A DNA stretch of 63,312 bases, filler included, from Neolecta irregularis DAH-3 (taxonomy: Eukaryota), in assembly GCA_001929475.1 (NCBI GenBank). It is 5 parts of 5 records of this genome, joined end to end, with 100 filler letters (N's around TTAATTAATTAA, not from the genome) between each part and the next. Parts side by side here need not be neighbours in the genome. Positions count along the whole stretch, not along the records: positions 1 to 15,025 come from LXFE01004132.1; positions 15,126 to 19,879 come from LXFE01004147.1; positions 19,980 to 25,665 come from LXFE01000577.1; positions 25,766 to 52,096 come from LXFE01004155.1; positions 52,197 to 63,312 come from LXFE01000582.1. One strand, given 5' to 3'. Below the pieces are notes generated by a model. The model had not been told where the DNA came from. It did no database searches and saw only the letters and a list, made by a program, of their open reading frames with translations. A program made the position numbers and the translations under genes. Shown one piece after another: positions 1 to 58,675 of the stretch. Position 1 is the stretch's first letter. Every line of letters begins with the position of its first letter.

Positions 1-1158
1 TGGACATCGGAGCAGCATTTGCTGCGAGCATCCTTCCCCAGAATGCAAGTGATCTTTGACCAGTCCTGCCAGACGTTGAGAAAAGCGTTCATCGTCGTTG
101 AAACTTTCCACCCTTTTATAACCACTTAACCCAAGCTCCTTCACCTCTTCGCCGTATTCCAAATCTAATTCAAAGAGTGTTTCAATGTGATCGCTTGTGA
201 AGGCGATGGGAACCACTAAGACATTCTTCTTGCCCGATTTCGCCAAGCCTCGAAGCATATCGATCGTTTGAGGCTCCATCCAAGAGGCAGGCCCTACTTT
301 GGACTGCCATGTCAACCGATACGGATTTTTGGTGCCAAGATCTTGCATAATAGATGATACGCTAGATGCCACCTCCATGACGTAGGTGTCCCCTTTCCGA
401 ACTTGTGACATGGGTAGCGAGTGTGCGGAGAAAAGAATGATGACTGGTTCTGGATCAGCGTACGTTTTCAATGAGTCTCGGATATGTTCGGCAAATGTCT
501 GTTCATGAATATTGTCGAAATGTGGAGAGCATACTTTCACAAGGCTCGGATGGTTGAACCATCTGTCAATTACACTCCATTTTATCCGTCCGTGTGGATC
601 AAGCTTCTTCGACCAATGATAAATATCATTTAAATTACTCCCAGTCGTAGAACATGTATATTGTGGGTACATCGTGACAGCAACAGCCCGTTCCACGCCG
701 TCTCGTAGCATCTGCTCCATAGTCTCGTTCGTAAGTGGACTTGCATATCTAAACATGATATAAGGCACATGAGGACCAGTTTCCGGTGTAGTCTTATCTA
801 GATACTTGCATATTGACTGAGCTTGGACTGTGGACCAATGTCGTATTGGGGAACCCCCGCCGATGGCAGAGTATGATGCTTGTATTTTGGGTGTTCGTCT
901 TCTGGCTATCCACTTTCCGATGGTTGATTGGAATGGGCCCAGTGGAATGATATCAGGGTCTAACAATCAGTATTCCCAGATCTTCAGAACTACCAGTGAA
1001 CAAACGAGTTAGGAAAGGTTGAACTTCACACAGGGTAGTAGGGCCGCCCATATTCATGAAACATATGGCCGAATTGTGAGAATATGCCAAGCTACGAATC
1101 TTACTGTAGGATTCTTCGACGCGGACGCGGTGACTGTAGCCATCGTTCTATGAAGCAT
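1..1158 (-). CDS. HEM15: Ferrochelatase (3' end runs off the window)
   Basis: Spliced translation MLHRTMATVTASASKNPT/AICFMNMGGP...FLTRLFT/DPDIIPLG...IGGGSPI...AHSLP...WQSKVGP...FTSDHIETLFELD, all ferrochelatase motifs; 3 introns visible. Confidence 0.95.
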
Positions 1159-1251
1159 TGTGGTGGAGATAGAAATGATGAGGCAATTTTAAATTTCTGA
1201 TCAAAAATAAAATCCTTCAGACAATCTCATTGATATCCACCACGTCAAGAA

Positions 1252-1784
1252 ATGTCTTTCGTAACACCACTAAAAATGATGGGTACTTTATGCCTTGGAG
1301 CTGTTTGCGTAATTTCTGCCGTTATTTTTCAATGTTCTCAAAGTTCAAGGGCTCGCTGATGACTGTTTCCCTCGCTTGTGTTCCGCTTCTTCTCTCATCC
1401 CAGTCTGACGGCGATGCTGCATCATCCTTCAAATTGCTCAAATTGAACTTGAAATCGTATCTGTATCCACTAGAGATTGTATCTATTACATCTCTGCTTG
1501 GCGCATTTGCCGCATCTTCGAGATCTCAAAGGCATCCGTATCTTATCTACTCGGCCATTGCTGGCTCCCTGATCTTTCCATATACTCGCTTTATCATGCC
1601 TTGTGTGCAACTTGAAGATCTCAACGCTGAAACTATCCAAAAAAGCCTTTCTAGATGGGGAACACTCAATTGGGGACGGTGCGCTTGAAATCCAATTTCG
1701 TCATATAAGCTAATCAGGTTCAGGGTTGCATTTGCAGGGATAGCATTTGGAATCGCTACCTTTGGTGGGTATGGAGACTTCTAG
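1252..1784 (+). CDS. Atg33/Scm4-like mitochondrial outer membrane protein
   Basis: 3 exons: MSFVTPLKMMGTLCLG...RHPYLIYS...GIATFGGYGDF*; RHPYL motif and C-terminal GxxGD are typical of the family. Confidence 0.7.
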
Positions 1785-1900
1785 TAAAACAACTTAAAAT
1801 ATATACCGTGTTTGAATATTCTTCTTTGAGCTGCAGACACCATGGGAACCCCAACTACACCTCTTCTGATCGGGAGTATGGAACCACCAGCACAGTATTA

Positions 1901-2786
1901 ATGAAGTATTACACAAATACGAGACAATACGCTGACCTGGAGTACGATTAAAGAAATATCGAGAATAAATCAGAGGCAGCTCGATTTACCCGATGGAGCG
2001 TATGTCTTTTTGCGTTGTGGCACCACCATTAATTCTACAGTTCTTGGCATGATCAATACAAGGACAGCGCTTATATTTACATTGGGGGATTGCCTTATGA
2101 TTTAACAGAAGGGGACGTCGTCTGCATATTCTCTCAGTATGGTATGCTTGTCTGCTCACCTGCTCATTTTCTAAGATACGGAGAGCCTCTTGATATCAAT
2201 CTCATTCGGGACAAGAATACTGGCAAAAGCAAAGGGTTTGCATTTCTCAAATACGAAGATCAGCGTTCGACAGTTCTTGCTGTCGATAACTTGAGTGGAA
2301 CTACAGTATGTCACTTGGTATCTACACTTGGCCTGACAAAAGGTCCTTGGGCGAACTTTGCGGGTGGACCATGTTTCTGAGTATCATCAACCTAAGAGGG
2401 AAGGAGAAAGCACCGATTTAGAAGATCCTAGAGCCGCTATGAATGTAGCACCAGAGGCTATGCTATCGAAGACGGATGTCGCCATCAGCAAGACTGATGA
2501 ACTTGATGAAGACGTCCTCGCTGAGGGACTGGATCCTGAGGATCCAATGCGAGGATACCTGATTGAGAAACGGCGCAAGGAACTTCGTTCTGAGAAAAGG
2601 GCTCGTAAAAAATGCGAGCGTATGTCTCGCAGTGAAAAACATGGCGATGAGTCTCGCGGTGAAAAACATGGCGATGAGTCTCGCAGTGAAAAACATGGCG
2701 ATGATAAACCAGAGCGGAAACGTAGTAAACGAGACAGTCGCAGCAGGAGCCCGCATCATCGTTCTCGTTCGCCTAGGAAAGTATGA
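1901..2786 (+). CDS. IST3: RES complex / U2 snRNP RRM protein Ist3/Snu17/RBMX2
   Basis: [25 protein letters not shown]...[23 protein letters not shown]...[10 protein letters not shown]-rich tail; 4 introns; first coding exon is only ATGAA. Confidence 0.95.
2625..2705 (+). repeat. 27-bp coding tandem repeat x3 (SRSEKHGDE) in IST3
   Basis: tctcgc(a/g)gtgaaaaacatggcgatga repeated three times. Confidence 0.9.
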
Positions 2787-3028
2787 CTAGGATGGTGTAC
2801 CAGGGTATCAGTCGAACGGAATATAACCCATGTAAAGCATTAACTAGAAATGTCTTGCTCCATAATTGTCCTCGTGAATTCGCCACACGTGTATTGTTCT
2901 GTGATACCTAACATGAACCGCGTTCGTCAGCTTAAATATCCAGTGGTCTCTCGTCCCGACAAATTCAACTTCCGCCCTCTCCTTTTCTTTCCTTCCCTAA
3001 ATCGCATAAGATTATCCCGCGGTCCACG

Positions 3029-4310
3029 ATGTCGTCTACTATGGTTGTTTGCCATCACTAGAGCACCATTGACGATTACAGAGTCGCAGAAAGAAAGCCA
3101 AGAAGACTGGCATTCAGTTTACGCTGATGATTACTGGTTGTTCGGGGACTGGAAAAACCACCTTTGTCAATACTCTTTGCGGCCGCCAAGTCCAGCCACA
3201 TCAAGAATGCGATGATCCTAAGAATGCTCATATCGAGGAGCAAATCAAGATCAAGCCTGTCACTGTGGGTATGAACAACCCTTGACCCTATTTTGACTGA
3301 AATCCTTAGAATTGGACGAAGAAGGTGTCCGAATTAGTTTGACAATTGTCGATACCCCAGGTTTCGGGGACAACGTCAACAGTGAGGCAAAGTGATTTGC
3401 AGTTTCCGGCTTTAATTGATGGTTAGTTTTGCCGCAATCGCTGGCTACCTTGAAAATCAATACGACGACATTCTTGCCGAAGAGTCGCGAATCAAGCGAA
3501 ATGCTCGGTTCAAAGACCATCGAGTACACGCTCTCTTGTACTTTGTCGTTTGCACAGGCCATGGGTATAATTAATTGCTTGTGCATAGCTGATTTTGAAG
3601 ATTGCGAGAACTTGACATTGAGCTCATGAGGCGACTTTCTCCACGAGTCAATGTTATTCCAGTTCTAGCAAAAGGAGACAGTCTTACCCCTGCTGAACTT
3701 GCAGAATGCAAAAGACTTATCATGGAAGACATTGATTATTATCAAATCGCGATCTACAACTTTCCATATGATGTTGAAGAGGATGATGAAGATACGATTG
3801 AAGAAAACGCTGAACTTCGAAGCCTTATGCCTTTTGCAATTGTTGGCAGCGAAGACATAATCGAGGTTGATGGTCGCCGAGTTCGAGCCAGAGTTTATCC
3901 TTGGGGTATTGTAGAGGGTACGGGAATGGTTCACATCGCAACGCTGATCTTTAGTCGAAAATCCTCGTCATTCCGATTTCTTGGCTCTTCGGTCGGCTCT
4001 TCTGCACTCTCATATTGCCGATCTAAAGGAAATTACTCATGATTTCCTGTACGAGAATTACCGTACAGAAAAGCTTTCCAAGGCTGTTGACACGGTTGAT
4101 GGATCGGAGACTGTTAATCCCGAAGAACTTGCTACTCAATCTGTTCGTCTCAAGGAAGAACAACTTCGACGCGAAGAGGAAAAGTTGAAGGAGATTGAAC
4201 TTAAAGTACAACGTGAAATTACTGAAAAACGACAAGAGCTCTTAGCTCGAGAAGAAAAGCTAAAGGAAATTGAAGCTCGAATTCAGCGTGAGCAATCACA
4301 TGATATCTAA
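3029..4310 (+). CDS. CDC11: Septin, Cdc11/Spn3/AspA group
   Basis: RRKKAKKTGIQFTLMITGCSGTGKTTFVNTLCG (P-loop), IVDTPGFGD, AKGD, RVYPWG, LYENYRTEKL, C-terminal coiled coil; 5 introns. Confidence 0.92.
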
Positions 4311-4521
4311 GTCATTTGATTCTGATTTCGATGGAGTGAGGAGTTTGTTGGACAAGAGGAGAGATTGGGAAGTCTTCCTTGCGTCATACTTCCATTCGGT
4401 GATAATTAATTGCAATTTCTATTATAGTGGGAGAAGATAAAGCTAGAGCCCAGAATACATTATGCGTGCAAGAATGCGCTGTCGTACTGGAGATCTGTGG
4501 TCTTCGCTGACAACCGAGATT

Positions 4522-5758
4522 TTAACTACCTGACTCATTTGTCCAGAGACCAAAAGGTCCGGGACAGCTTTTCCACAGTCTGATTGTTCCGTCCTCACTT
4601 GAAGTTGCATAAAGATTTCCATCCGGACTGAAACTTACACAATGCACGGCTCCATGGTGACCCTTGTAAATTTCTCAAGGTCAATGACTGCTTGTAGATC
4701 CAGACATACCTAATTCTTCTCCTGAAGGATAATCATACACTCTAACCCAGAGATCGCTGGCACCACCCGTAACAAATTTTGTATGAGAGGGATGGATGGA
4801 GATGCTGGAGACATCATATTCGACATTGATTTGCTTCTCGAGAGTGAAGCTATGTGTCAATTAGGAAGTAGGAGAAGGCGTACACGTCAGAGGATAAGAA
4901 ATAGACAGATTTTCCCGCAGTAACAGTTACACACTTTCCGTCTGCGCTTTGTTCCATCGATGTAATCATAACATTGGCGACAAATTCGTTGACGATGGTA
5001 TTGCTTCGAAGGTCGAACCAGCGAATCTTCTTGTCATCACCAGCCGATAGGATTAGATTTTCAGAGCGCCGATCCCACACGACAGATTTTATGACTCCTT
5101 CATGAGTCTGTAACTGACGGGGTGTACTTGTCTCTAGATCAAAGAGTCGAACTTTCTTTTCATGGCCGCCGGTGATTGCCTGGCAGGCATCTGGGGAAAA
5201 ATCCACACTTCTAACAATGTGCTCGTGAGGGAGAGATGTTTGCTCAGAACCAGTGTAAGTGTTCCAGACTTTACTGTTGGATCAGACAAATCGGGTTCTC
5301 GGTGATACGCGGTGAAATCAGCACTGCCGGTGATTGCTTTTCCCGCGTCTGTAGAAAGACGAGCGGACCATACTGCGCCTTTGTGTCCTAGGAAGGTGCC
5401 AATCCAGTCACCAGTTATTCCATTTCTAAGCATGGGATTGCCGTCTAAAAGTAAGAAGGAGGAACGGGCGACCCAAGACCCTTTGAGGCGGATATGAGAT
5501 AATACTCATCATCGACAATGGGGGAGAAATGGATGTACGTGACTGGGCGTTGGTGGCCTTTTCGAGTCAGTATTTAATTGGAAGCGGCTAATGCACCCGA
5601 ACATGTCTATTTGGGATCAGTTCACGGAAGCAAGGACATGCAGAACAGACCAAGGGCACGACCCTCGAAGATGCGGCCTGCTGCGGTTGTAATGGACGTG
5701 CCTGTTGCTGCTGATGCTGGAGATTTGGGTTCTGTTGTTGCGATGAATGCAAAAGCAT
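4522..5758 (-). CDS. STRAP/Unrip-like WD40 protein
   Basis: VVPL/TCS/GHQRPV...[26 protein letters not shown]...[10 protein letters not shown]; includes a 10-nt microexon at 5597-5606. Confidence 0.92.
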
Positions 5759-5872
5759 TGCAGGCGGTGCAGCAGCAATAGCAGAGAGAGTAGAGCAGCA
5801 GAGGCGTCTGGTGGTGAGAAATGACGCAACAACACTTTCTCACCACCAATTTTTTGGTTCCAGTCATCAGTA

Positions 5873-8521
5873 ATGACAAGGACACAAGGCATAGAAGACA
5901 CAGAAATACCGTCCTTTGAGCTTGCACGCGAATTGCGCGGCCATTCGCAGGATGTATGCGGCTCTGCTTCATATTTTATTGCTGGAACTCAACTGCCAGG
6001 TCAAGGCTGTTGCAGCTCCCACACCCGCCCTGCTGCTTTCTGCCTCCCGCGACGGTTCTATTCGCCAGTGGTCACTTGACAGTAATGGCGATACAGATAC
6101 AGATGGTGATGAGGCAGAGGTGTATTCTTCTAGCACCGCCTCCTTTGTCAATTGCATCGCCTGCATTTTGCCCTCATCCGACTTTCCTGGCGGTCTTGTT
6201 GTTGCAGGAGGCACAGACTGTGCTGTGAGCGTCTTTGCGCCTGGATCACACGAACCAATATATGTACTTGTCGGCCATTCACACAACGTCTGCAGTCTCG
6301 ACGTCGATACTGCTGGTGCAATTGTGTCTGGTTCCTGGGACAAGCACGTCTCGCTTAGAGTACTGCTGATCCTCCAGAACCGCCCGCATCTGGATCAATT
6401 GGCAATCTCATGCTATTCTGCAAGGACACACCCAGGCCGTATGGGCCGTCCTCATTTGGAACGACAGCAGCACAATCCTGACTGGTCCGCTCTCCTCCAT
6501 CTCATATCGTCTCACCCTCAGGCTCTGCGGACAAAACAATTCGTATGTGGAGCAATGCAGCCACAATCAAAACGTACGAGGGCCACACAGATTGCGTCAG
6601 AGCACTCTGTAAACTGGCGGACGACCGATTCGCAAGCTGTGGGAATGACAGGTAAAGCCGCTCACACTGCAAGATCTAAGCCTAGCGCTATTCGCATTTG
6701 GCATATTGATGGTTCTCAGCTCCGTCAACTGTACGGCCACACTTCATTCATTTACTCTCTTGCCCTTCTTCCCTCTGGCGAAATCGTTAGCAGTGGAGAA
6801 GACAGATCAGTACGCATATGGCGGAACCATGAGCTCATCCAAACTATAACAATCCCCGCAGTCAGTGTCTGGAGCGTTGCATGTTCGCCTTTGGGCGATA
6901 TAGTCTGTGGCGCCAGTGATGGGGTTGTGCGTGTCTTCACCCGTGATAGCACAAGGCGCGCCCCCATCCAGGTTCTGAAAGTATGAATCGCCCTTTCTAA
7001 ATTAATATTCTAGGCTTTCGAGGATACTGTCGCAGCCCAGGCCATTCCATCGTTTGGCTCATTTATAATCTCCTCTGACAACAAGCACGCAAGTGGGGGA
7101 TATCAACAAGGAGAACCTTCCAGGCTTGGAAGCACTTCAAAATCCTGGTATCTTCATAAAACCAATCTGAAGCCAATTCGATAGGCAATAAAGAAGCCCA
7201 AGTTATCATGATACGCAATGGCGAAACCGTGGAAGCATATCAGTGGACTGCTGGAAGCTGGCAAAAGATCGGAGAAGTTGTCGATGCCGTGGGATCAGGA
7301 CGAAAACAGATCTATGACGGCAAAGAATACGATTATGTTTTTGACGTGGATATACAGGAAGGTGCACCGCCCTTGAAACTTCCTTACAACGCCAACGAAA
7401 ATCCCTGGTCTGCCGCTAACCGTTTTCTCGAACAAAATGACCTTGACATGGGATTTCTTGAGCAAGTTGCAGATTTTGTCGTAAAGAATACAAAGGGTGT
7501 GAATCTGGGCGTCGCTGAAGATTTTAATAGTCAATACGGTCGTCACAAGCCATTTTTTCGCTTATCATACAGGTAGCCGATATAAACCTGGTCAAAAGGA
7601 TGAGGATCGACCGTCCGTTTTTCCGCAAAGGACCTATCTCTCTTTTAAACAAATCAACCTGGAGGGAATCAAGAAGAAAGTCCGAGATCTGAACAATACT
7701 GTATGCTAGAGCACTGGCGTTGCATTTAATGATCCAGGTTGGCACCGCATCACTTACATCAAAGGAACTGGAGCATCTCGACTCTATCTGTATTCTGCTT
7801 GAAAATTCGCAAGAAATTGACGATACTGGCATACAAGTCATTTTGAAAATTGCAACCTCGTGGCCGATTGCTTCACGCTTCCCTGGATTGGACCTCTTGA
7901 GAATTGTGGTCTTGTATCAGACCTCTATAGATTTATTAGGGATTATCCTTAGGCCAGACCTATATCACAAAGACCAAGGAGATACGAATCTGATGCTCGG
8001 GCTCCGCTCTTTAGTAAATTTCTTTAGTTCCAAGGATGGAAGAAATCTACTCGTTGATAGGATAGAAATGGTAATCCCTACTGCCAAACATTGATACTCA
8101 TGACCAGCTTTTGTCTCTAGTTTCTCTAGTTTCCTCACAAAACAAAAATGTGCGCCTAGCGCGGGCCACATCATATTTGAAGTAGGCTTCGTTGCGTTCC
8201 TCCTTCGTTTGACAAATAGTCTAGTGACTCTTATTCACGAATCCTCGAAGGAATATTTGCGGGAACAGATCGTGGATGTCGTTGAGAAGGTGCTCTTAAG
8301 TATGGGATGCTTATCTAATTTTTATATAGGCCAGTCGTTCGGAGAGTGACCCTGAGACTGTGTACCGCTTGCTTATAGCTCTTGGTACCGCTTTGTCGGT
8401 GCCTAAGCCAACTCGAGAAATGAAGCAGACCGCATTAAAGCTCGTTTTGCAATATCAGACATTATCGATGGAGAAAAGAATTACGAATGCGATTGAAGAT
8501 ATTCGTTTACTCATTGCATAA
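5873..8521 (+). CDS. DOA1: Doa1/Ufd3/Lub1 (PLAA): WD40 + PFU + PUL domains
   Basis: WD repeats, PFU motif YDYVFDVDIQEGAPPLKLPYN, PUL motif WP...RFPGLDLLR; about 12 introns, one with a GC donor (6344-6377). Confidence 0.95.
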
Positions 8522-8552
8522 TGTAGACAAGATAGAAAAGTTTAAATATTAT

Positions 8553-9169
8553 TCAAAAGTCTTGAACGCCGGTCTGACATTTGAGATTGTCCTCAAGATG
8601 GGCATCGCCTGGCGGGTCTTCTTGGAAATACGTTTCCTCTAAATCTCGCGTGATGAGATCATTATCGTCGTATTCAGAGTTATAGTCTACTTCATCATAG
8701 TCGAAGTCGCTCTAAAATATCAACAAAACACATGATACCCACTTTTACATCTAGGCCCATCACAAACAGATCCTTGAGCAGATCACCAAGTTCCGCGACA
8801 TTCTCGGGAGCAAATATATTCTCGGCATCATTCGCAAGAGATTCACTCCGCAAACTATTGTACTCTTTCTCATCCAGTTCCTAGTATTCGTAAGCCCAGC
8901 AGGCTTTTGAGCCGTACAGCCAAGATCCTGGAAGAAAATGCATGAGTATCATCCGATTCTTTGCCACGTTGCTCAGCGGCGATTTCATTTCTCACATTCT
9001 TGTTTAATAGCTGAGGATCCAACACAGAGCTATATTTTCCCTCAAGGTATTCCTTTTCAAATTTCTGCAAGTAAACAAAGCGCCGATTTGAAATCAGCAC
9101 ATGCCTCCTTTTGTTCGCAGGGACGCTTTTTAATGGCATTGGAAGATTAGATTTCATATGCGAAGACAT
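8553..9169 (-). CDS. CCDC97-like protein
   Basis: ISNRRFVYL...DPQL...FVMGLD/SDFDYDEVDYNSEYDD...RDLEETYF...TGVQDF*; 2 introns. Confidence 0.8.
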
Positions 9170-9852
9170 TTATTGTAATAATCAATTGTAGAGGGGTCCC
9201 AAAAACCAAATAATCAGCAAAAACCATGCTCCATATGTATTTGCTTAAATCTAGTAATAATATAATATATAGGCTTTTGTATACTACTTTTAATTACAAG
9301 TGTTATTGCGACCCTTCTTAGAATATACCACAATATCCAAGTCCTCAGACCCATTTTCCAGTTCTTTATAAATGTAAGTTACACAGGCTGAAATTTGGGG
9401 AGTTTTAGGTTAATTTTTAATTACTTTGCATCTCTTGCGAGTTTGAAAATATCAAGCCGAGCTCAAGACTCACTGTAGCCAGGAACCTCCAATTGTTTTA
9501 TTGTTTTTTATGAGCCTTTGGCTTGTAGAAAGTTAAGCTCTCTTCTGGGACTAGTGAATGGCTATCTGAGTTCGATTTAGAGCCATCCCTACAAGCCTCT
9601 TTCACCAGGGCTTTGTTTGCCCATCTCTCTACCAATATCCAGGATTGCTCTTCCAGGGTATCTTCATTACAGTTATAGAGCGTTGGAACCCGATAGTAGA
9701 ACAATATATTTTTGCATGAGAAGAAAAATAAATAACAATAAAGGGACGAGAATAAACAGTGGTAAAATGAGCCACTGTATAGATCAAAGATCAAAGAACA
9801 TACATTGTGCTGAAACAGAGAAAAGAAATGAAAGCAAAAAACCGAAGACAGT

Positions 9853-11756
9853 TTAAATACTCCCTTCATCACTACTAAGCTCCAACATCTCAAAATCGTC
9901 AACATCAGGACCACTGATATCGGAAAGAGTGTCAGATTCGGGGGCCGCAGCATTATCAGCTTTGGCAATAACGTCAACTAAAAGACCTTGTGGTTCAACA
10001 TGATGCTGATCAAGTTGCTCAACAGTCGGAAAAATAAGCTGTGACTCGGAAAGAGCTCCTAATTCGTTCGGATTTTGCGATACAGAAAGTGGTCTATCTA
10101 ATCAGAACTTGGAAACAATGTCGACTTACTGTATACTTTCCTTCTGCTCAGTTTGAGTGGCGGCAGTGAGTATAGTCAGCCCTTCAGTCTTTGAAATCGG
10201 TATTTCTGCTTTAAGTGAGAAGACGCCATGTTTTGGGCTGTTTGGCAGAACAACCATCGGACACAGGTGGATGCCCTTATCCTCGCATTTCTGACACTAT
10301 TCTGTCAGAAATATACCTCTTGGTAGGATTACAAGATCGAAATCGTCACATTTCAAACAATGGTAACGAGTTCCGATGATCGGACTAAATTTGTCAACAA
10401 TCTTGTTCAAAGTAAAATATACTCTTGAAGGCAATTATCACATCCAAAGCCGTCATGTTCCCCATCGTCATCATAACTTTTAATCGCTTCAAAATTAGGT
10501 CGAGGAAATGATGGACAACGAGGACTTCTGTATTTGACAAAAGTATGATGTGGTCCATGGATAGACCCTTGAGAATCGAAGCAGTTTTCGCACTAACTAT
10601 CAGTGGCGATTATTCAAAGGCGGATTGATACAAGATCAAAGTCGTGACAGGTGGCGCACAAGTAGCGGATACCTTTAATCGCTAAAATATAAGCAAACAT
10701 ATATATTTTAGCAAAACAAACCGCCTGAGCAATTATCACATCGAACAAAAGGGTGCAAAACTGGTGAATTCGCAACATGGCTAGGTTCGTTGAAAGCAGT
10801 GACTATTAAATTTGCGAGAGGGGTTTTAATCTTTATGAGTGGATGTTCATCTGGATGAGTTCCAAGCGCTTCGCAAGCTGAACAAAGATCCAAATCAGGA
10901 CATATAGAACATTTGTATCGAATGCCCTGAATAGGGGTATTTTTTTCGACACAATTTGGACCATCGCAGAGTACATGATGATGCGATACCTGTTCTCTAA
11001 TGGTAGACGGGGATTCTTGTTGCTCCTTTGTAGTCAATCCATCAATTTTGGCTGCAAGAGCAGAGACGGCCAGAGTCAAAATATCTGTTCGCTCGTTCAG
11101 CCTTTTTGGTTCAAACTGATTTAATTTCAAATCGATCTTCTTGATATCGGAAGCCAGCGAGGAGATTTTTTCAGAAATACCTGCAACATCCTGCATATTT
11201 GACTGGGCAACCACAGAAACATCAGGTGGTCTAGCCATCGCAGGACCAGCTTTTGCCATGGCACCTGCTTGGCTCGCCGTAGAAGATAAAGGCGCAGCAT
11301 GAGTAACCCCGGAAGCATCGACATAAAAGCGAGCCTCTAGGGGCCGCGCGGTAACGTTTACCTTTTTAAGCTGAAACTTGAACTTTGGTTTCTCGTTCTT
11401 CAAAATAGTGCGTCTTGTTATATCTTTCAAGTTCTTGATACTTCAGAGTAAGCCAAAAGGATGACGACAGCTGACCCAGACCCTTTTGGAGATATCGCTT
11501 TATAGTGATTCGCACGCTCTGCTCTTGTAGACTCTCGATATAACGTATACTGTCCATCATTCGGAATCCCCAAAGCCGTCATGACCTGTTTTTATCAACT
11601 CGTCGAGGGGGAAAACGGGGAAGGTACCTTGGCAATCAACGACGCCACATCCTGCGTGTTATCAAAACACGTCTTGTCAACTATTATCCTGCGAAACTTG
11701 AGGGGTTCAGTCTCAATCTTGAGCTCGACTTTAGCAGAAACAGCAGAAGCAGACAT
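9853..11756 (-). CDS. NBR1-like multi-ZZ zinc finger protein (autophagy receptor candidate)
   Basis: Three ZZ domains (CDGPNC...RYKCSICPDLDLC; CDNC...RYLCATCHDFDLC; CDNC...RYHCLKCDDFDLC), SQLIFPTV motif, C-terminal DDFEML. Confidence 0.75.
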
Positions 11757-11894
11757 ATGGGACTGGTGGCAGATGGGGTGGTGAAAGCGGTAGATAAGAC
11801 GCCGATCACGTCACCTGGTCTCATCTCCTATCTAACGAAACCTGAGGGAAGATAAGAAAGGAATTTAATACATATACACAGATATATGCAAAAA

Positions 11895-13300
11895 CTATGA
11901 TTTTTTATCTCCTGCGCCACCTGCTGTGATCGGGGGAGTGACAGTTTGAACGGCTGCTGGCGGATAATACACCGGAGTAGACTGCGGGCTGTAATAATAT
12001 GCTCCAGCGTTCTCAGTCGATTGACCTGCGTACCAATAATCACCGCCGTAATACATCGAATTCTCCATCATATCAGGTCCGCTCATCATTGGTGAATATC
12101 CCATATATGGCGAGACGGGTGAGTACGAGAATGACGGAACTTGGTTGTTGGTGTCGTAGACGTACGGGGGTGGTAGTGCATATGTATTCGGGTGAAAGGG
12201 CGCAGCATACACAGCTAAAGATTAGTAATAAAGAAGAAGAATAGCGTACCGGATCCCGGCAAGTGGCCCCAAGTCTTTTGTTTATGAAGAAAAGGTGGCG
12301 TAGCTGCACTGAGGACAGCCGGCGGAGCAACGCTAGGGTGATTTGCACCAAATTGAGCTATTTGAACGTTTCTCGTAGGACGAGGTTGATGAACTTGGAT
12401 TTGGCCGGCAGGGTTAGTCGCACTCACATCTGGACTTGATGGTTTCTTATAATGATGATGATGGTGATGGTTCGGGCGGGCATCGTCTTTGCGAGTAAAT
12501 TGATTTGGCTCATAAGAATTTTCAGAGGCAGGATAAACTTTCTTTATTGGTTGACCCGGTAGACAAATTTGTACGGGTAAATCTGCTCGAAGAGGTTTAT
12601 ACCTCGCAGGACGAACGTAATGCCGCCGGACATCGATTACAAGTGATTCAATTACCGTCACATTTGGAAGGTTTATCTGGGCGCAAACTGTATTATTTGC
12701 GGTTTTTGGTTTTGAAGGTGGCTAGAATCAGAAGAGAATTTATTGAAAATACCCTTGATGTAGGTTTCTGCCGGGTTTCCAGTGGATCGAACGCATCGTG
12801 CTTCCATCGTTCGTCAGAGGGATCCCTTTTATTAGCCAGGAAAATAAGATGAAGAAATACTTTGTTTGTTTACCACGTTTTCCACGGCCTTTAGTTGTTT
12901 CTCGAACGGGTTTCCGATTACGAGAGTCATGCATGAAGAAACTTCCAATGTACGGGACAAAAGTAGGATCACGAGCAGCTCGAGAAGTGTACTCTTGCCG
13001 ATTTTTCTTTAAAACATTTTCTTCGGAAAGGAGAGATAAATCTTCAAAATGTATATTTTCGACAGGAGTTGTATTTGTCGACATTCCATTCAACATTTCT
13101 TTTGTCTCTCTGCTCGAAGAAAACATTGCCGTTTCTCTAGAGGGGGTTTGTTTTGTTGGATCGGAAGGGATTTCACTCCAGTCCAACTGATTGCTTTCCA
13201 ATCGAGATTTCGGGATAAAATCCACGTTCGAATTTTCAGAGTCGCTTCCAAAGCCTTGTTCATCTTCGGAAGCGCTGTCTTGGAGAGGATGGTCGTCCAT
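11895..13300 (-). CDS. CASC3/Barentsz (Btz domain) exon-junction-complex-like protein
   Basis: DPTFVPYIGSFFMHDSR and ERWKHDAF Btz motifs; Pro/Tyr-rich C terminus; 3 introns. Confidence 0.75.
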
Positions 13301-13523
13301 ATATTAAAGATTCAATAGTGAGGAATAGACCAGGAAATGCAGTGGCAAATTTATGTGAACGAAAACACGTGAAAATCGCAGTTGTGTAGGCTAGTATACG
13401 TGCTCGTCACGTCAGCTATCTACATTCGTTCTGAGTATTCATTGCGTATCGTCTCCTTTGTATCATATGACTTTCCAAACGCATCATATCTTTTCCATAG
13501 GTAATGTCCATTATTCATATCAT

Positions 13524-14621: not shown

Positions 14622-14777
14622 TGGAGGGCGGATTCGGTCTCCAGGCTTCCGCTAGACTATCCGTAGCCACCCTATCGCCCTAACCTTGCTTGTCCGCGCT
14701 GCGCCGTTTGCTCCAACCCACTCGTCTCTGGTGTTCACTCGCTCTCACTGATACTCGCCCTCACCACCTGTTCTATC

Positions 14778-14876
14778 TCACTCGGCCACTTCCATTACTC
14801 GGGACTTCCATCACTCGGCACTTCTATCACTCGGCCACTTCCATCACTCGGGACTTCTATCACTCGGCCACTTTCA
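14778..14876. repeat. 16-17 bp tandem repeat, about 6 copies
   Basis: tcactcgg(cc/g/c)acttc(c/t)a units upstream of RSM24, just before a 10-N gap. Confidence 0.85.
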
Positions 14877-14910
14877 CACTTCCATCTCACCCGCGTTCGA
14901 NNNNNNNNNN

Positions 14911-15025
<115 letters not shown>

Positions 15026-15125
15026 NNNNNNNNNNNNNNNNNNNNNNNNNNNNNNNNNNNNNNNNNNNNTTAATTAATTAANNNNNNNNNNNNNNNNNNN
15101 NNNNNNNNNNNNNNNNNNNNNNNNN
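15026..15125. other. Artificial contig linker N-TTAATTAATTAA-N
   Basis: Six-frame stop linker between N runs; the same linker occurs near 19924, 25710 and 52141. Confidence 0.97.
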
Positions 15126-18791: not shown

Positions 18792-18927
18792 TGACAACCC
18801 TCAATTTAGTGGTTGGTTTCTGGTTTCCGGAATGGACTGAGGTCTTCACGTTCGCCTTATTCGATTTAATCTTCCACCCGCACTAAACAAGGAGTTTAAG
18901 GATTAAAAAAAGGAAATTATCGAGGAG

Positions 18928-19879: not shown

Positions 19880-19979
19880 NNNNNNNNNNNNNNNNNNNNN
19901 NNNNNNNNNNNNNNNNNNNNNNNTTAATTAATTAANNNNNNNNNNNNNNNNNNNNNNNNNNNNNNNNNNNNNNNNNNNN

Positions 19980-20746: not shown

Positions 20747-22681
20747 ATGAGATCACCCGACGAGAATGGCGAGAATGGTCATCAGAATGGGCTCGTTACG
20801 CTTCAGAATGGTCAGACGGATATTTCCCATAGTCCTCTATGCACTTCCTATAACGGCTATGATCGAGAGCAAGTCTCGAGACTGCTTGTCCAGGCCCTGC
20901 ACGATCTCGGCTACGAGTGAGTGAATAGAGTTTAAGCAGGGTTCCAATGACGTTTTTATAGAAAAGCGGCATCTTCGTTGGAAGAGGAATCAGGCTTCAC
21001 CGTCGAGTCAAATCATATTTCTCAGTTCCGTCACGCTATACTTGATGGTCAATGGACTGAAGCCGAGAGTCTTACTTCCTCGTTAGATTTGAGACATGAT
21101 ATTCGTCGCGAAGTATTGTTATCTTACCAACCTAATGCCTAACTTTTACCAGAATCTCCTCTTCTTAATACGGAAACAGAAATTCTTTGAGCTTCTTGAA
21201 ATGAACGAGGTTCAAAAAGCTTTAAAAGTCTTACGGAATGAACTATCGCATCTAGATCAAGATCCCGAAGAATTGCATCATCTTTCAAGGTAAGCCGCCA
21301 CATTATTTAGCTAATGTTGTAGTCTACTGATGACGGCTTCTGTGGAAGATTTGAAAGAGGAGTCTGGCTGGGACGGTGCTGCCGGCCAGTCTCGTAAGAC
21401 TCTGTTGGCTCGACTTCAAGGTATGATGATTTTGGAAAGGTGCTTATTGTTTGATCATATATCGCCAGTTGCAATGATCCCTAGAGCTCGTCTCGCGTCG
21501 CTGCTTGATCAAGCACAGTGTTATCAAATCTCAAAATGTTTATATCACACTTCTACGGACCCTACCTCATTATTTTATGATCATAATTGCTCGAAATCCG
21601 AATTCCCTCGTACTACAATTAAAATCCTTGAAGCCCATACGGATGAAGTCTGGTTCGTCAAGTTCTCCCATAATGGCAGATATCTTGCTTCAGCTTCCAA
21701 AGATGCAACCGTTATCATCTGGAATTTGGAGGTAGCATTTCCAAAATCCACTCTGTTAACAAATCAGACATTCGAATCACTGCATCGACTTGTAGATCAT
21801 TGCAAGGCTGTAACATGTGTAGACTGGTCTCCAAACGATGCACAACTTTTAACATGTGGTCAAGACTTTCTCATCCGTCTCTGGGACGTCGCGGTAAATT
21901 TCCATCACTCTTAAAAATGATCTAACCCTCAAGATTGGTCGATGTATCCGGATATTTGAGCATCATCAAGATTCAGTTAGTTGTTGTGCATGGCTGCCTT
22001 CAGGCAATGCATTCGCCTCAGCCAGCATGGACCAAGATATAGTTCTTTGGAGACTGGATGGTGCCATAACATACAAATGGAGCGGATTCCGAATATACGA
22101 CCTCACGATCAGCAATGATGGCGAATATCTTGTTTCTATTTGTACGGAGAAAAAACTCCATGTCTATCATGTCCCATCACAACAATTTATATCAGACGCC
22201 CAGTTACAAGGGGAACCCACTTGCGTTACCTTTGCGGAAGACTCCCAGCATGTTCTCATAAATACATCTGCAAAGGTACTCCATAATATTATTGTCAAAT
22301 TCAAATTTTCAAGGAAGTACAGATGTGGTATATCCCGGAACCGCGGTTGGTTAGGAAATTTGTGGGACAAGATCAAGGCAAGTATGTGATACGCTCTTGT
22401 TTCGGAGGACCGAATCAAAATCTTATACTAAGTGGAAGCGAAGGTAGTCTTGTCATTGGCCTAAGAGGAGCTTATGTTAAGACGCACATGTTTACATCTG
22501 GCATCGCGAGCTGGGGACATTGATCGAGCGGCTTGCAGGTCATACTGGTACAGTCAACTGTGTGGCTTGGAATAGTACCAGTGTGAATGGCATGTTTGCA
22601 TCGGCAGGGGACGACCAACTCATACGCATGTAAAGAGTATCATATCAAAAGGAGCTGACAGAAAGTTGGTCGCACGGATAA
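20747..22681 (+). CDS. WDR26/Gid7-like LisH-CTLH-WD40 protein
   Basis: REQVSRLLVQALHDLGY, FRHAILDGQW, IPRARLASLL, HTDEVWFVKFS, YVIRSCFGG; about 9 introns; start may lie further upstream. Confidence 0.9.
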
Positions 22682-25383: not shown

Positions 25384-25916
25384 AGTCTGGTTGGTGGGAA
25401 AAGCCCGGTTGATGGCGACATGCGCAAAAACAGGCCTTATCACCTGATATTAGTTAGTAACCCACGACCGTTCAGAGCGCCAACATATGACCACTCTCTG
25501 CCTCGAGACTTAACTTGCTATTCAATATCAACAATTTTGTGCACCAATTCCTGCTCTAATTCCCTTACTTTACCCCTGTAGTTCATCAGTATTCTCTCTC
25601 AAAAAGGATTTGCCCATACTTGAAATCCTCGACTTCCTTCCAACATTCCAATGGCCTGTGATCATNNNNNNNNNNNNNNNNNNNNNNNNNNNNNNNNNNN
25701 NNNNNNNNNTTAATTAATTAANNNNNNNNNNNNNNNNNNNNNNNNNNNNNNNNNNNNNNNNNNNNATGTGGACTAGATATTTATTTTCAAGTATTAGTTC
25801 AGTAAACCCACTAGGTCTTTATACAAAAGGATTTATTGTGCGGTTATCCAAAGCTGCACTAACGCCTCACTGTTGTTCGTGTCATCACAACTGATTAGTT
25901 GACAATATCTATTCGT

Positions 25917-52897: not shown

Positions 52898-53995
52898 CTA
52901 ATTCTTAGCCCTCCTACTCTTTCCAAGCCGTTTCTTAACACCGCCAGCTTTCTTTGGTCCCGTACCTTTCATTTTCTTCACTGAGAACCCATCAATATCG
53001 CCGCTACTTTTTGCATCATTGCTTTTGCTATACCTCTTCTTCCCTCCGAACCCAAACTTTTCGTCTCGTTTTTTACGTGACACTTTTGGTCTTTTCTTCT
53101 CCTCCTTCTTACTTGCTGTGTCAAGAGCAACATCAAAATCATCGTTTGTAGTAAGGTCTTCGCCTCCGCGTTCTAAATAGTGAGTAACAAAGCATCCACT
53201 GGGTTGGCATACTTCTCTTGAGCGTTTTGATTTTGTCGAGCGTATCTTTCTTGGATTTCTCCCGTTCTTGAAGTTTGGCCATTTGTACTTGCTTACCGAA
53301 TTTCTTCAGATCGCGCTGTTTCCTTGCTGTTTCTGAAGCCTTCTTTGCTGTTGCATCTTCCACAAGTTTATTTTTGACCTGGAGTTAGCAAATGTGATTT
53401 TGAACGCAGCGAATACTTTGTCCATATGTTGATCTGTCTTCAACATTTCTGCAAAATAATCTGTAGGCCTTGTAAAAGGGACGCCTTCGTTAACAAATAA
53501 TTTCTTTCCATTTTGCGCAGCCTCGAGGGCCTGCTTATAGAATGCAAGTTCTCTTGAAAGATCGTCGTTTACATCCTTTATATTTACAGCTTCCGAAGAG
53601 ATAACAACTTGGTGATCTGAAAATTTGAGGGAAGAGTATGGACGACATATCGATTTATATTTCTGAGCAAGAGCAGAGCGGTTATTGATAGTCATGCGTT
53701 GGTAAGGCACGATATCCACATCGTCGTTCGCATTCAAAATCAACGAGTCGGCATCAGATAAAGCCATTTCTTCTCCCTCGCTTTCCACTTCTTCATCATT
53801 TTCCGAGGAATTATCTTCAAAATCTTTTTCTGCTTCTACGTGTACGAGTTGAGGGGCCTCAGCGTTATCCCGATCTTGATTCGTAGAATTTTCAGCTATC
53901 TGCAACTTTTTTGCCCGACTATTCTTGACTTTCTGTCCTTTCTGTTCTTCAATGTGTCTTTTCAGCGCCGACTTCAATACGCCGACTTTGACCAT
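52898..53995 (-). CDS. EBP2: rRNA processing protein Ebp2
   Basis: DDLSRELAFYKQAL, RPTDYFAEMLKTDQHM, KKFGKQVQ, KFGFGGKKR..KSND, RLGKSRR; 2 introns. Confidence 0.97.
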
Positions 53996-54138
53996 GGTAT
54001 GTCAAATTAATATCGAAAAAATCAAGATGTAGCTGTGCCGAGATTTTTCTTCGAGATATCAACACGTGACATCGTTGAATGGGCGCTTCAAAGTTGTTAT
54101 CACCTGTTCGCATTAGCCAAACCAATCAAATTTACCAT

Positions 54139-54488
54139 ATGGACACAGCAAAAGAAGCAGTGACATCTACAACAGAAGCACCAACGGAACAAGGCGGAGC
54201 AGTAGAGCAAAGGTCAATTGTACCATTTATATCTGATATTCGATTGATAACTATCTAGACCGACGACATGCTGGATCAACTCGTATAAATCCCTGAAATG
54301 CCGTGTAGATGCTGAGAATGCAACAGCAAATCAAGATACAAGGCATGTCAAAAGATTTGCAAGCCAAATGTCACCATTTTTACTAGAACAATCTCACATC
54401 ATTAGTGGACGATATTCACACAAAACTTCAGAAATTGGAGGAATCTTTTGGCGATGAGCCGTTGCCTAGCGAAAAAGAAAAGGCTTAG
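54139..54488 (+). CDS. HSBP1-like small coiled-coil protein
   Basis: 4 exons: ...TDDMLDQL/QIKIQGMSKDLQAK/LDDIHTKLQKLEES; absent from the ORF track. Confidence 0.7.
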
Positions 54489-54679
54489 AGCTTAAATAAT
54501 GAAAGGATTCACAGTTGAAGAGGTAAGGCTTCGTGCCCTTGATACTGATTTAAGGCAATGTAGTTCAGAATGTTGGCTTTGGGAAGATATCTTGAGCTCA
54601 ACTTGTAATTGAAGAATATCTGAATGTATTTTAAAGGGTTTCAGTCGTTAAGCCAATGTGGATCTCGTACAAGTTATCA

Positions 54680-56181
54680 CTACAACTCATCCTTTGCAGG
54701 CTTCTCTGACTCGAATACTTCAAACGCCTTGAGAATATTTCTTCTGACTTGGAAATCATCGGCCCTATCCTGATGAACAAACAAAAACAGCTGTGATGAC
54801 TTACTTGGAAAGTGCCAAACTACCTTTTGCGAGAATATTGTCGAGCCGTAATCCTTCGTCGTTGACATACGAGGGTTTGGTCGTGATCTTTTCAAAGACC
54901 TTTAGATAATAATTCGCATGACTAGAGTGAGTAGTCATGTATATCATACATATACCTGCTGGGATTGTTCTCTGAAACCTTTTTTGCTTCAGAGATAATA
55001 TCCTTACTTTTTGTCTCCATAAATATTGTGGCAAGTTCATCTAGTTCAGCTATACGGCCGGCTTGCGACCCAAGGGTACCACCGATCTGTCGGTTTGTAC
55101 CAGCATTTGCATTGATGAAAGAAAGAATGCCCGCTTCTGTTCGCTCTCCAGAATAGCCAACAGGAGTCTTTGAGGGGCCTCGTGGAAAAACTACACTTTG
55201 TCAACTCAAAAAGGGCAATGAAAAGTATACATTTGAGTGTTGGATATCCCTGAACTCCATGCTGTTCACACAGGGCTGTGTGAACAGTACAATCAACTTT
55301 GGCAATGACAATCTAAATTCATTAGATGGAAAAGACAGGTCGAGTACATTAGGCTCTCCAATCATGTCGTTAGCGAGGTTGTCATATTCAGGAGCCAACT
55401 TTTGGCAATGTCCACACCTAGGAAATCAGGATTATTTTCCAAAATAAAGACCATGTCGTATAGAACTTTACAAAAACTTTGCGTAAGCCAAAAGTAATCA
55501 ATACAAAAGCTTACCATCCTTTTGGGGATCCATCACAATTGAATAAAAGTTCTCGTCAGTCAAAATTATCACTTCACTCCGAGATGTTTGTTTCGGTTTA
55601 ATTTTTACGCCAGCGCGTTCCATGATAAATTGTGAAAGAGACTCAAAGTCACGTCCTTTGTCGTAGTCTTGAGGATCTTTGGCAGAATTATCAAACCACT
55701 GTAGTTTGAACGAATGGACTCCTCATAAAAGTACCTTCAGGGTCGGAAAGCCCTTGATTCCAAATCTTTTACCAAGATCCTTGTGTTGATCTGCATCAAC
55801 TTTGGCGACAATAACTTTGTCTGGCTGATTAGTTGGAGATAAACGTCCCGATTACCTTTTGCGTGCACGAACTCGTCAGCGAGCTGCTCAAAAGTAGCTT
55901 TCTGTTAGAGGATATTGGGTGAATTCTTACGAGCCAAATTCTTGCAATGCCCACACCTTGACATTCAGAATTTTATATCCGCGTAATAGCATACCATGGC
56001 GCATAAAACTCAACTAAAGCTGGTATTCCTTTCCCGATAACCTTTGAAATACTGAACAAAAGGCCCGAATAGATTATTATACTTGATCAAAATTGTCCAA
56101 AGTCAAGTCTATGACATTTGAAGCAGAGATAGAAGAGGAGAAGAGTGCTGCTGCAGAAATAATGGACCAATTCCAAACCAT
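54680..56181 (-). CDS. ER protein disulfide isomerase, ERp38/TigA type (two WCGHC domains + ERp29-like tail)
   Basis: Signal peptide, two WCGHC motifs, GFPTLK/GYPTLK, C-terminal KDEL; about 11 introns. Confidence 0.93.
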
Positions 56182-56399
56182 CGTCGTGAATCTAAGCTAG
56201 GAAACCAAAACCAACTTTTGTAGTTCGAACCCCCCAAAACGATAATGCACCAAAACAAATCGTAGGGGGGGATATAATATCTAAATTATATCTTGTGATA
56301 GATTTCTGTTATTTTCGTCCAATTCATGTATATTCACTGGGATCGAATCGGGCTTTTGTGGGAAAATTTACGCCAACACCAACACTCTCACTGTTCACC

Positions 56400-56873
56400 A
56401 TGGTGGTTTTGCATGACGTTACAGATGAATCTTTTGTGGATGCCGGACACGAGAATGATGATGATTACACTGATGTTTCCTCAAATGAAGAAGAAAGCAT
56501 TAACGACGCTGTGTCTGAAGTAGACTTTAATCCTTCCCGCGAAACTCTTGCAGAACGGATTACCGCTTTGAAAGATATGGTATCCCCGTCAAACCGAACT
56601 CGGGTTCAAGGAGCTTTCTCGAAAAGCAGTGTTTTTGCGAGCACTGCAATGGTGGTGATTAGTCGGACACTGTGGGTTCTTTCGACAACGGCCTTATTTC
56701 TAGTTCCTTTGGCATTGATATCAGAAGAAGAGCGAGGGTTTATTGAGCAAGAGAAGGAATTCCAGATGCAACAGAACACGACAACGGAGGTATCTTATAG
56801 TGCATTGACCAAGTTATAGCTGACTTTTCAGAATTCGACATCTGCAAAGGATCCGATGTATGGCGATAAGTGA
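56400..56873 (+). CDS. TOM22: Mitochondrial import receptor Tom22
   Basis: Acidic N terminus, ETLAERITALKDMVSP, TM segment LWVLSTTALFLVPLAL; 1 intron. Confidence 0.92.
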
Positions 56874-57009
56874 AAATTTCTTTTTGAAGCCGGTAATGAT
56901 AGGAACAGCAGTCCAGTGTACTTGTATATATCTGTAGACTTTCCCACAATGCTTTTATAAAGTCATCTTGGGTTCTATTTCCTTTATATAGTCAATAAGT
57001 ACGAAGAAA

Positions 57010-58675
57010 TCAGTTGCTGCAAATGCCACTTCCTCTTATAGCACTCTTGTTGACAAATATTCTCGGCAGACCATTCTGCATTGAGACCGTGACAGAACCA
57101 TTGTATCCAACAGTAATCTCGTTACAAGCAACAACTTCGACCAACGTTGTGCCCTGTGAAAATTCACTTTCAAAGCTAAAGGTAGTGGATGCGGCTGTCG
57201 AACCACTATTTGTAAGAACCAAGAGCAAATTCTTTTTCTGAATGGCAGAGTCATGTTTATCCGCCTTGAGAAGCTTCATATCTGTTGTGAGGTGGCTCGA
57301 ATCGGCATATGCTAGATAGTTTCTCAACTGGTTGCATGTAGCAATAAAACTGTATAATGGAGCAGAAGTGGAGTACCCAGAAGTCCAAAGAACTTGTCTG
57401 ATCCTTAGCAAAGAAAAGAGCCACGATACCTGTTTGAGGGCGCATTGTTTCCTGTAAAGCTTTGCTCTTGACCATAAAATATCGTGGGTATACCATCACT
57501 TAGGATTGTGAACGCGACAACCTAACGATGAGTCTACGAAACGAAAAGAAAGTTTCATTTTTGTTTGCATTGACATCTGAATTGATAGATGCAAAGCGGT
57601 ACATGTCATGATTTTCAGAAAATGTGTTCATCAAGCTTGGATCGGGGAATGCAGCCTGGATTTGCGATATTTTGCTCATTGCAGCTGACATATCGGCCCC
57701 ACTAAAAGCAAACGCACCCAGAATGACCAGCTGCTGTGTTGCAAAGTCGTGGTTTGAATCTAAATATCTTTGGTAGCTAGCCAGGTAGTCAATGTCGGCA
57801 GAATAGACTAGATATGAGGAAATTCACAGATAACAGATACCCTCTCCAATGGTAAAGACATCTACTGAGGCTCTGTATGAAGAGAGAAATTCCTTGCTGA
57901 CATGCTTGGCGGCATCGATTCTAAGACCATCGAACTAGTCATCAGCATTCATGTTGGCAAAATATGTGTACCCCATAGGTCGAGATTGCATTCTGCGCCC
58001 ATTGTTTTAGAGGACCGGCGACATCGGTGTCTTCAAATCGGAGATCAGCTAGAGATACAATAGTTCCTTCTAGCCAACACTGCTCAATTTGGGTTTGTGT
58101 GGAATAGAGCGTGAGGGGACAATATTCGTGATAGTACTTGACCGAGTTGAACGGCTGTAGTTGGGAGTAATCGACTGCATTTTCATCGGCAGGATATGCC
58201 ATATGGTTGACCACGACATCTAGCATAACGTACATTCCTCTGGCATGGGCCTCGGAGACGAGGGATTTCAAATCATCACTGGATCCAAAGTGCGAATTGA
58301 GAGCGTCAAAGTTATTTGGCCAGTAGCTACGAGCTATCAGCTTTAAGAAATAGCAAGGTATACCCATGATAACCATTGCCGGCAAAGGTTGACTGATCGA
58401 TATTCTGATTAATAGGGGAAATCCAAATCGCTGTAAATCCCATCTCTTGGATGTATGACAATTTATTTTCAATCCCTTTCCATGTACCTGTCTCTTAATC
58501 GTAGATTCGCTTCAAACGTACCTCCGCAGTAATTATCAAGATCTCCACAAGACCCGCCCGATTCTTCAGTTGTGGCGAATCGATCTGTCATGATCTGATA
58601 AATTGACCTTGAACGCCAATCTGCTGCAGACGCAGCGAATATCGCAGGCACGAAGAGCAATAAAGCAAAGAGCAT
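57010..58675 (-). CDS. Secreted alpha-amylase, GH13_1 (Taka-amylase type)
   Basis: Signal peptide, [30 protein letters not shown], catalytic RIDAAKH / GEVY / ENHD; 6 introns. Confidence 0.95.

Follow-up and report, generated by a model that had tools for sequence, protein, structure and literature searches.

Within a 63,312-base window of the genome of the ascomycete fungus Neolecta irregularis DAH-3 (G+C ~40–45%), six short segments are likely to be spliced U2-type introns in which a single near-invariant splice-site base has changed and which are removed precisely. The window is the whole stretch of DNA analysed, and every count below was made within it unless stated otherwise. The GT/GC...AG pattern of U2-type introns is absent from all six: three read GA-AG, and one each reads GT-CG, GT-TG, and GT-GG. 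About 1 in 25 of the short introns here (~4%) appears to break GT...AG and yet to be spliced. Two kinds of evidence bear on this finding, namely the read depth of spliced-RNA-like contigs at three of the sites and the alignment of conserved proteins across the junctions.

Results

Six short introns outside the GT...AG rule

The first-pass annotation of this DNA had proposed six such segments, and their coordinates, strands, ends, and lengths (33–37 nucleotides (nt)) were verified in 6/6. The putative introns are as follows.

36021–36056, plus strand: cytoplasmic dynein intermediate chain (DIC), 36-nt GA-AG; donor GAAAGT; branch CTAAT, 8 nt from the 3′ end.
47720–47756, plus strand: YME2/RNA12-family gene, 37-nt GA-AG; donor GAATGA; branch CTAAT, 7 nt from the 3′ end.
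27980–28015, minus strand: TIP20/RINT1-like gene, 36-nt GT-GG; donor GTAATC; branch CTGAT, 7 nt from the 3′ end.
1070–1104, minus strand: HEM15 ferrochelatase, 35-nt GT-CG after the first coding exon; donor GTAAGA; branch CTCAC, 7 nt from the 3′ end.
21421–21453, plus strand: WDR26/Gid7-like gene, 33-nt GT-TG; donor GTATGA; branch CTTAT, 7 nt from the 3′ end.
57522–57556, minus strand: GH13 alpha-amylase, 35-nt GA-AG; donor GAAACT; branch CTCAT, 7 nt from the 3′ end.

As the same annotation had remarked, the terminal Gs (G+1 and G−1) are kept in 6/6, the changes being T>A at +2 in three introns and A>C, A>G, or A>T at −2 in the other three. Its statement that four segments cannot be kept in the message also stands: retention gives a frameshift or a stop in HEM15 (35 nt), amylase (35 nt), TIP20 (36 nt, with an in-frame TAA), and YME2 (37 nt, with an in-frame TGA), and is in frame for DIC (36 nt) and WDR26 (33 nt). 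Length and branch are normal, as had been claimed (33–37 nt, against a mode of 36 for introns of this genome; branch A 7 nt from the 3′ end in five introns and 8 nt in DIC), and are of low information. Outside the terminal dinucleotides, the signals of the six lie between the 23rd and the 96th percentile of canonical introns. The canonical alternatives at these sites are 47–81 nt long, or have poor donors, or place the branch 14–22 nt from the end, and those of 4/6 introns score at the 2nd to 12th percentile; the alternatives that score like their non-canonical rival are the 48-nt option in WDR26 (44th versus 42nd percentile) and the 51-nt option in TIP20 (22nd versus 76th).

The three GA-AG introns all have an A at +3 (3/3), yet an A stands there in 74% of all introns in the window, and an upstream AG precedes one of the three (AAG, TTG, and AAT). 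U12-type introns carry the 5′ consensus [AG]TATCCTT and a TCCTTAAC-like branch; neither a U12-type 5′ motif nor such a branch was found in any of the six. In the nonconventional introns of euglenozoans, the intron ends are held together by stable base pairing. The folding energy of the six introns was no better than that of shuffled sequences in 6/6 (z −0.78 to +1.19), and no structure pairing their ends was seen.

Read depth of spliced RNA at DIC, YME2, and TIP20

Two sets of contigs were mapped onto positions 27880–47879 (20 kb): X1, from a DNA run, and X2, which resembles spliced RNA. This interval takes in TIP20, DIC, and YME2, and HEM15, WDR26, and amylase lie outside it. The output listed 15 of the 44 joints and 16 of the 77 contig pieces. 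All of the listed X2 joints (14/14) skip GT..AG or CT..AC introns, and the X1 contigs run through; X2, although labelled 'DNA?', behaves as RNA. Each contig carries one flat depth, and the mean depth of a bin is accordingly the contig depth multiplied by the covered fraction, from which the number of uncovered bases in the bin can be read. In control bins, this depth reproduced the lengths of the introns in 8/8 cases (35, 35, 36, 74, 82, 72, 77, and 35 nt), within 0.1 depth units.

In the three test bins, the uncovered bases implied by depth and those expected from the non-canonical reading were 105.0 and 105 for DIC, 149.4 and 149 for YME2, and 117.6 and 118 for TIP20, whereas retention and every canonical alternative were off by 4 to 36 bases. 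The DIC bin (35884–36550) holds two annotated introns totalling 69 nt, which together with the 36-nt GA-AG intron make 105 uncovered bases; the observed depth of 71.2 compares with 71.20 if 36 nt are removed, 75.76 if they are retained, and 71.70 for a 32-nt GT-AG option. The YME2 bin (47223–47879) holds three canonical introns that with the 37-nt GA-AG intron make 149 uncovered bases, and its observed depth of 58.8 compares with 58.84 for removal of 37 nt, 63.13 for retention, and 55.02 for a canonical 70-nt intron starting at GT 47687. That 70-nt alternative is in frame. The YME2 exons match Pfam RNA12 at profile positions 93–133 and 144–200, and in the upstream exon the matched segment extends as far as residue 41 of 46, within the stretch that this alternative would remove.

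At TIP20 (bin 27880–28546, observed depth 45.8), introns of 38, 44, and 36 nt, 118 nt in all, predict 45.76, retention predicts 48.76, and acceptance of the AG lying 11 or 15 nt further downstream would give 44.85 or 44.51. A contig piece fixes a donor at 28531. When paths from that donor were enumerated over the scored candidate introns, 598 preserved the open reading frame; five of these total 116–119 nt (all 118), none of which works without a non-AG acceptor at this intron. Two of the five are otherwise canonical, and these consist of 38 + 44 + 36 nt with the GT-GG intron. A Pfam search with two TIP20 exons matched no family.

The X2 RNA depth therefore fits the absence of segments of exactly the non-canonical lengths (36, 37, and 36 nt) at 3/3 testable sites. 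Retention and splicing at nearby canonical sites, the two transcript outcomes that the first-pass annotation had set against its own proposal, do not fit the depth at DIC, YME2, or TIP20. Translational bypassing of the frameshifting segments was considered and set aside, the YME2 and TIP20 segments being already missing from RNA.

Genomic bases in the DNA contigs

It had also been asked whether the unusual bases are consensus errors. The non-canonical bases at DIC, YME2, and TIP20 are identical in the X1 DNA contigs, at a depth of 410–434 (checked on contigs), and they are not consensus slips of the window assembly. X1 and the window differ at a single base in 20 kb, position 32345, away from splice sites; the window has A there, and both X1 (depth 410) and X2 (depth 307) have G, either an assembly slip or a strain difference. 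One X1 joint (37436 to 46067) has no repeat backing and was treated as spurious.

Conserved proteins across the junctions

Judged by alignment to homologs, the conserved proteins require the junctions at DIC, amylase, HEM15, and WDR26. For DIC, we compared the 24 pattern-matching sequences among the first 40 matches. In 21/24, FS[PQ]K runs straight into F[PS][ED]L[VL]LASY, and the remaining three (P0002, P0004, and P0020) carry V-initial inserts at the intron site. Because such inserts begin with V, as an unspliced GT intron would give, the position of the DIC intron seems to be conserved. Three WDR26 homologs (P0242, P0243, and P0245) likewise have inserts at the site of the WDR26 intron, which points to conservation of that position too. 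These inserts in other ascomycetes are probably unspliced introns left by automatic annotation, and they would mark ancestral intron positions.

In the WDR26 alignment to the human protein (8qbn_7), there is a single gap of exactly 11 residues, opposite 21421–21453. Only with the TG site does the protein (..LQ|DHISPVAMIP..) align gap-free to the proteins of two Pezizomycetes, Morchella and Choiromyces (..LS|[RK]SIS[PA]SVMIP..); the canonical AG 15 nt downstream, which makes a 48-nt intron, deletes the conserved xxISP.

Splicing of HEM15 at the CG site joins ...SKNPT to AICFMNMGGP. Among 82 ferrochelatase homologs with at least 10 residues before N[ML]GGP, T stands at −6 in 81/82 and A or G at −5 in 82/82, with the consensus S-K-G-P-T-A, against which the spliced window reads S-K-N-P-T|A. 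The sole exception at −6 is, by its sequence, the Neolecta model of NCBI, which reads ...HNSA by way of an artefactual GT..AG. Reading through the segment gives YSHNS without an upstream ATG, and the first AG past the branch makes an 81-nt intron that would remove the NMGGP motif and scores at the 2nd percentile.

The exons that flank the amylase intron meet at adjacent residues in 7/7 solved sequences matched end to end (e.g., 313|314 in 2guy_A and 332|333 in 3vm7_A), and two more sequences are consistent by offset. The in-frame canonical option there (GT 57574, 53 nt) ranks at the 2nd percentile and would cost the protein 6 aligned residues.

In three protein searches, the close matches (83–100% identical) were NCBI models only, and no Logan-derived Neolecta protein was among them. 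The translated DIC exon shows 100% identity, across 173 residues, with the NCBI entry 'Cytoplasmic dynein 1 intermediate chain 2, partial [Neolecta irregularis DAH-3]', and a second exon of the window matches the N. irregularis DAH-3 ferrochelatase model equally well (100% across 141 residues). The expectation that relaxed splicing would break standard gene annotation was borne out in the N. irregularis DAH-3 models that we looked at, 3/3 of which are distorted at the non-canonical sites. P0001 (DIC, 35919–36437, plus strand) keeps the 36-nt segment as 12 residues; P0121 (ferrochelatase, 995–1147, minus strand) has an artefactual N terminus, MAT|IRSLAYSHNS..., by way of a poor GT..AG; and P0241 (WDR26, 21421–21468, plus strand) uses the AG 15 nt downstream and loses five conserved residues.

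Intron landscape of the window

Genes were parsed by dynamic programming that combines coding log-odds with an iteratively learned intron model. A parse limited to GT-AG returned 32 gene segments with 139 introns, of which 133 are 31–47 nt long (mode 36). The best branch motif, of the YTRAY type (commonly CTGAT, TTGAC, CTAAC, CTGAC, CTAAT, and similar), lies 6–9 nt before the 3′ end in 115/139; the donors share a weak consensus, AAG|GTA(T)G, and introns of this genome have no pyrimidine tract. The parser found 10 of the 14 RNA joints listed and also made some false calls, and for these reasons we put the true number of introns in the window at probably ~150–190. The 'roughly 160' counted by hand in the first-pass annotation is therefore a fair figure, and the parsed 139 an undercount. 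Several introns seen in RNA contigs or in an NCBI model had been parsed as coding (30693–30728, 31244–31278, 32462–32496, and 35695–35727 on the plus strand; 42280–42318 and 28494–28531 on the minus strand). Short introns here are often free of stops, and ab initio counts consequently come out too low.

When any single change in GT..AG was allowed, 7/145 introns were non-GT-AG: four GA-AG and one each of GC-AG, GT-GG, and GT-CG. The donors AT, CT, TT, and GG and the acceptors AA, AC, and AT were never picked in this parse. Four of the seven picks are the GA-AG introns of DIC, YME2, and amylase and the GT-GG intron of TIP20; those of HEM15 and WDR26 were missed because reading through is cheaper for the parser. 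Two other picks were rejected. At the GA-AG candidate 34884–34923, an X2 piece runs unbroken through 34466–35015, and the parser had fused two genes. The GT-CG candidate 49430–49463 lies in a read-through open reading frame with its own ATG, and the sequence is unconserved and of low complexity.

At 33826–37153 (plus strand), the parser merged a short-chain dehydrogenase gene with the DIC gene by way of spurious introns. An X2 contig of 2,819 nt spans both genes, whose transcripts or untranslated regions abut or overlap.

The remaining pick is a GC-AG intron, and a second probable one lies in the same gene (approximately 37738–40000).

39627–39665, minus strand: 39-nt GC-AG intron from the one-mismatch parse; the RNA bin fits introns of 39 + 35 + 37 nt.
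39494–39530, minus strand: probable 37-nt GC-AG intron, donor GCAAGT; an X2 RNA piece ends at 39493.

For the latter, the bin depth of 59.4 compares, by a small margin, with 59.35 predicted for 111 uncovered bases and 58.71 for 117, and a 37-nt GC-AG intron is the probable reading over the in-frame 43-nt GT-AG intron of the parser, whose GT lies 6 nt upstream.

Discussion

How the six introns could be recognised

We infer that the spliceosome removes these segments, that a ruler mechanism sets their 3′ ends, and that a rate of ~4% holds genome-wide. The 3′ cut would be set mainly by the distance from the branch together with the terminal G, which would make the A at −2 dispensable. Such a ruler would explain why TIP20 uses a GG 7 nt from the branch in preference to an AG at 18 nt. 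For recognition of the 5′ site, G+1 and the remaining donor bases would suffice, and an A at +2 would be no bar. The first and the last G of an intron pair during exon ligation, as known from yeast genetics and spliceosome structures, and this pairing would fit the invariance of both Gs here.

Whether Neolecta uses a relaxed code of the major spliceosome throughout its genome is, in our estimate, an evenly balanced question. Under such a code, a ruler of 7–8 nt from the branch adenosine plus a terminal G would define the acceptor, any base would be allowed at −2 and A tolerated at +2, and a correctly spaced NG would outcompete a downstream AG. The GA-AG and the non-AG-acceptor classes would each make up ~2% of introns, and the cause would lie in altered small nuclear RNAs (snRNAs) or in second-step fidelity factors. 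An Rfam scan of the window matched no family and found no snRNA gene.

Weighing the evidence and its alternatives

Several points weigh against precise splicing of all six segments. An in-frame canonical alternative exists at every site except DIC, and the DIC and WDR26 segments could be retained in frame. The junctions are ambiguous by 1–2 bases in 5/6 (all but WDR26), and that of DIC can also be read as GG..CA or AG..AC. At DIC, YME2, and TIP20, the RNA evidence is bin-depth arithmetic that assumes one flat-depth contig per bin, the joints themselves not being among the 15/44 listed, and the TIP20 case also depends on how two adjacent introns (38 and 44 nt) were assigned. The HEM15, WDR26, and amylase introns rest on homology, outside the RNA-mapped 27880–47879. 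Two of the seven non-canonical picks of the parser were false. A scan on signals by terminal dinucleotide returned 133 GT-AG segments and 40–101 of each other class, which is uninformative, and in genic DNA ~60 segments per dinucleotide class pass a 20th-percentile signal score. Because so many arise by chance, a normal length, partner site, and branch motif carry little weight alone, and homology and RNA have to carry it. Finally, the sample is 63 kb only, from which a genome-wide rate is an extrapolation.

It could be that the introns of DIC, YME2, and TIP20 are real and that some or all of HEM15, WDR26, and amylase are handled otherwise. WDR26 might be spliced at the AG at 21468 or keep the segment, HEM15 might begin with a different first exon or start, and amylase might use the GT at 57574 or be a gene in decay. 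This mixed outcome gains from the confinement of the RNA mapping to the other three genes and from the in-frame canonical options available (48 nt in WDR26, 53 nt in amylase, 81 nt in HEM15), the first of which is the one taken by the NCBI model P0241. These alternatives would nonetheless delete xxISP from WDR26, six aligned residues from amylase, and either NMGGP or the invariant T at −6 from ferrochelatase. They are also atypical in length, with those of HEM15 and amylase at the 2nd percentile (the two WDR26 options, at the 44th and 42nd, are alike), and RNA fitted the non-canonical and not the canonical reading at 3/3 sites tested. We consider a mixed outcome rather unlikely.

The depth arithmetic might itself mislead, with the segments retained, or removed by something other than the spliceosome, in genes that tolerate inserts or decay. 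Contig depth is flat and summed over contigs, the joints at the three sites are missing from those listed, and P0001 keeps the DIC segment as coding, all of which speaks for this possibility. We nevertheless judge it very improbable: the control bins agree to within 0.1 depth units in 8/8, an in-frame stop would follow from retaining the YME2 or TIP20 segment and yet the downstream exons are open and conserved, and none of the six (6/6) has an unusual RNA structure such as structure-dependent introns would be expected to show.

Least credible, by a little, is that the unusual bases are assembly errors or belong to one allele, the spliced RNA coming from a GT or AG allele. Contigs drop minor variants, and such an allele in the same fruiting body could be hidden by them; X1 may moreover be the source of the window and hence not independent of it. 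Against this, the separately built X1 contigs (410–434×) and the exons of X2, which comes from another sample, disagree with the window at one shared base (32345 A>G), or ~1 in 20,000, and six hits on splice dinucleotides that spare the terminal Gs are unlike random error or polymorphism. Spliced non-canonical introns at all six sites remain the reading that we hold to be probable.

Relation to known splicing systems

GC-AG introns are a universal minor class of U2-type introns (~1%), and GA-AG and GT-NG introns are normally far rarer. In GC-AG introns, of which one or two occur in the window, the major spliceosome tolerates a single change at +2, as it would in the three GA-AG introns. Percent-level GA-AG splicing has been reported in two animals. 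In the copepod Eurytemora affinis, GA (and GG) donors are given for ~12% of introns (PMC5714493), and GA-AG exceeds GC-AG in E. affinis and in the tunicate Oikopleura dioica (PMC7072748). The latter survey, which includes fungi, puts GA-AG at 3.2% of the supported sites of one species, flanked by AG upstream and A downstream, and gives a U1 variant as the proposed cause; in its account of GA-AG outliers, E. affinis and O. dioica are the only species named (PMC7072748). Here, GA-AG was found three times among the ~150–190 introns of one 63-kb window, two of them backed by RNA depth and the third by homology. As in Eurytemora and Oikopleura as these reports describe them, the introns read as U2-type introns with GA...AG ends and spoil gene models until the class is recognised; the A at +3 (3/3 here) is shared with 74% of all introns in the window. 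Unlike in those animals, an upstream AG is present in only 1/3, there is no GG donor, and non-AG acceptors co-occur.

TG 3′ splice sites are reported as alternative sites of U2-dependent introns in 36 human genes (PMC2374985). The TG acceptor of WDR26 is like them in ending a U2-type intron and in keeping the terminal G. In contrast to the alternative use described for the human sites, the TG, CG, and GG sites here are required by the conserved protein, with the nearest AG 11–46 nt further on, and the RNA depth for the GG site of TIP20 fits its sole use. U12-type introns and the nonconventional introns of euglenozoans may also lack GT-AG ends (PMC12501133, PMC12621601), but the six have neither the motifs of the former nor the pairing of the latter and stand one base apart from the neighbouring GT-AG introns.

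Our literature search found no report of non-GT-AG splicing for Neolecta. Neither 'intron' nor 'splic' occurs (0 instances) in the main text of the paper on the N. irregularis genome, and its supplements may hold intron statistics (PMC5309816). Percent-level GA-AG thus has precedent in two animals, and its presence in a fungus, alongside non-AG acceptors that are used constitutively and keep a fixed spacing to the branch, is new to the literature searched.

Consequences

The +2 and −2 positions are among the most invariant of eukaryotic genes. If the relaxed code is real, Neolecta would be a fungal example of GA-AG introns at the percent level and of non-AG acceptors in constitutive use. Routine splicing of GA-AG and GT-NG introns in a fungus would amount to a natural experiment on the role of +2 and −2, one that would test whether a fixed distance between branch and 3′ end can substitute for the A of AG. 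Should ~4% of introns be non-canonical, with ~6 introns per gene, about 1/5 of gene models would be affected, and errors in the models bear on comparative work that uses the Neolecta genome as that of an early-diverging multicellular ascomycete.

Other features of the window

A tRNA scan of the window returned zero tRNA genes. Ten short runs of N are present, in a pattern that resembles masking more than gaps in the assembly; among them are two 10-N runs at 14901–14910 and 49088–49097, and the filler blocks at 15026–15125, 19880–19979, 25666–25765, and 52097–52196 each consist of 44 N, 12 bases, and 44 N.

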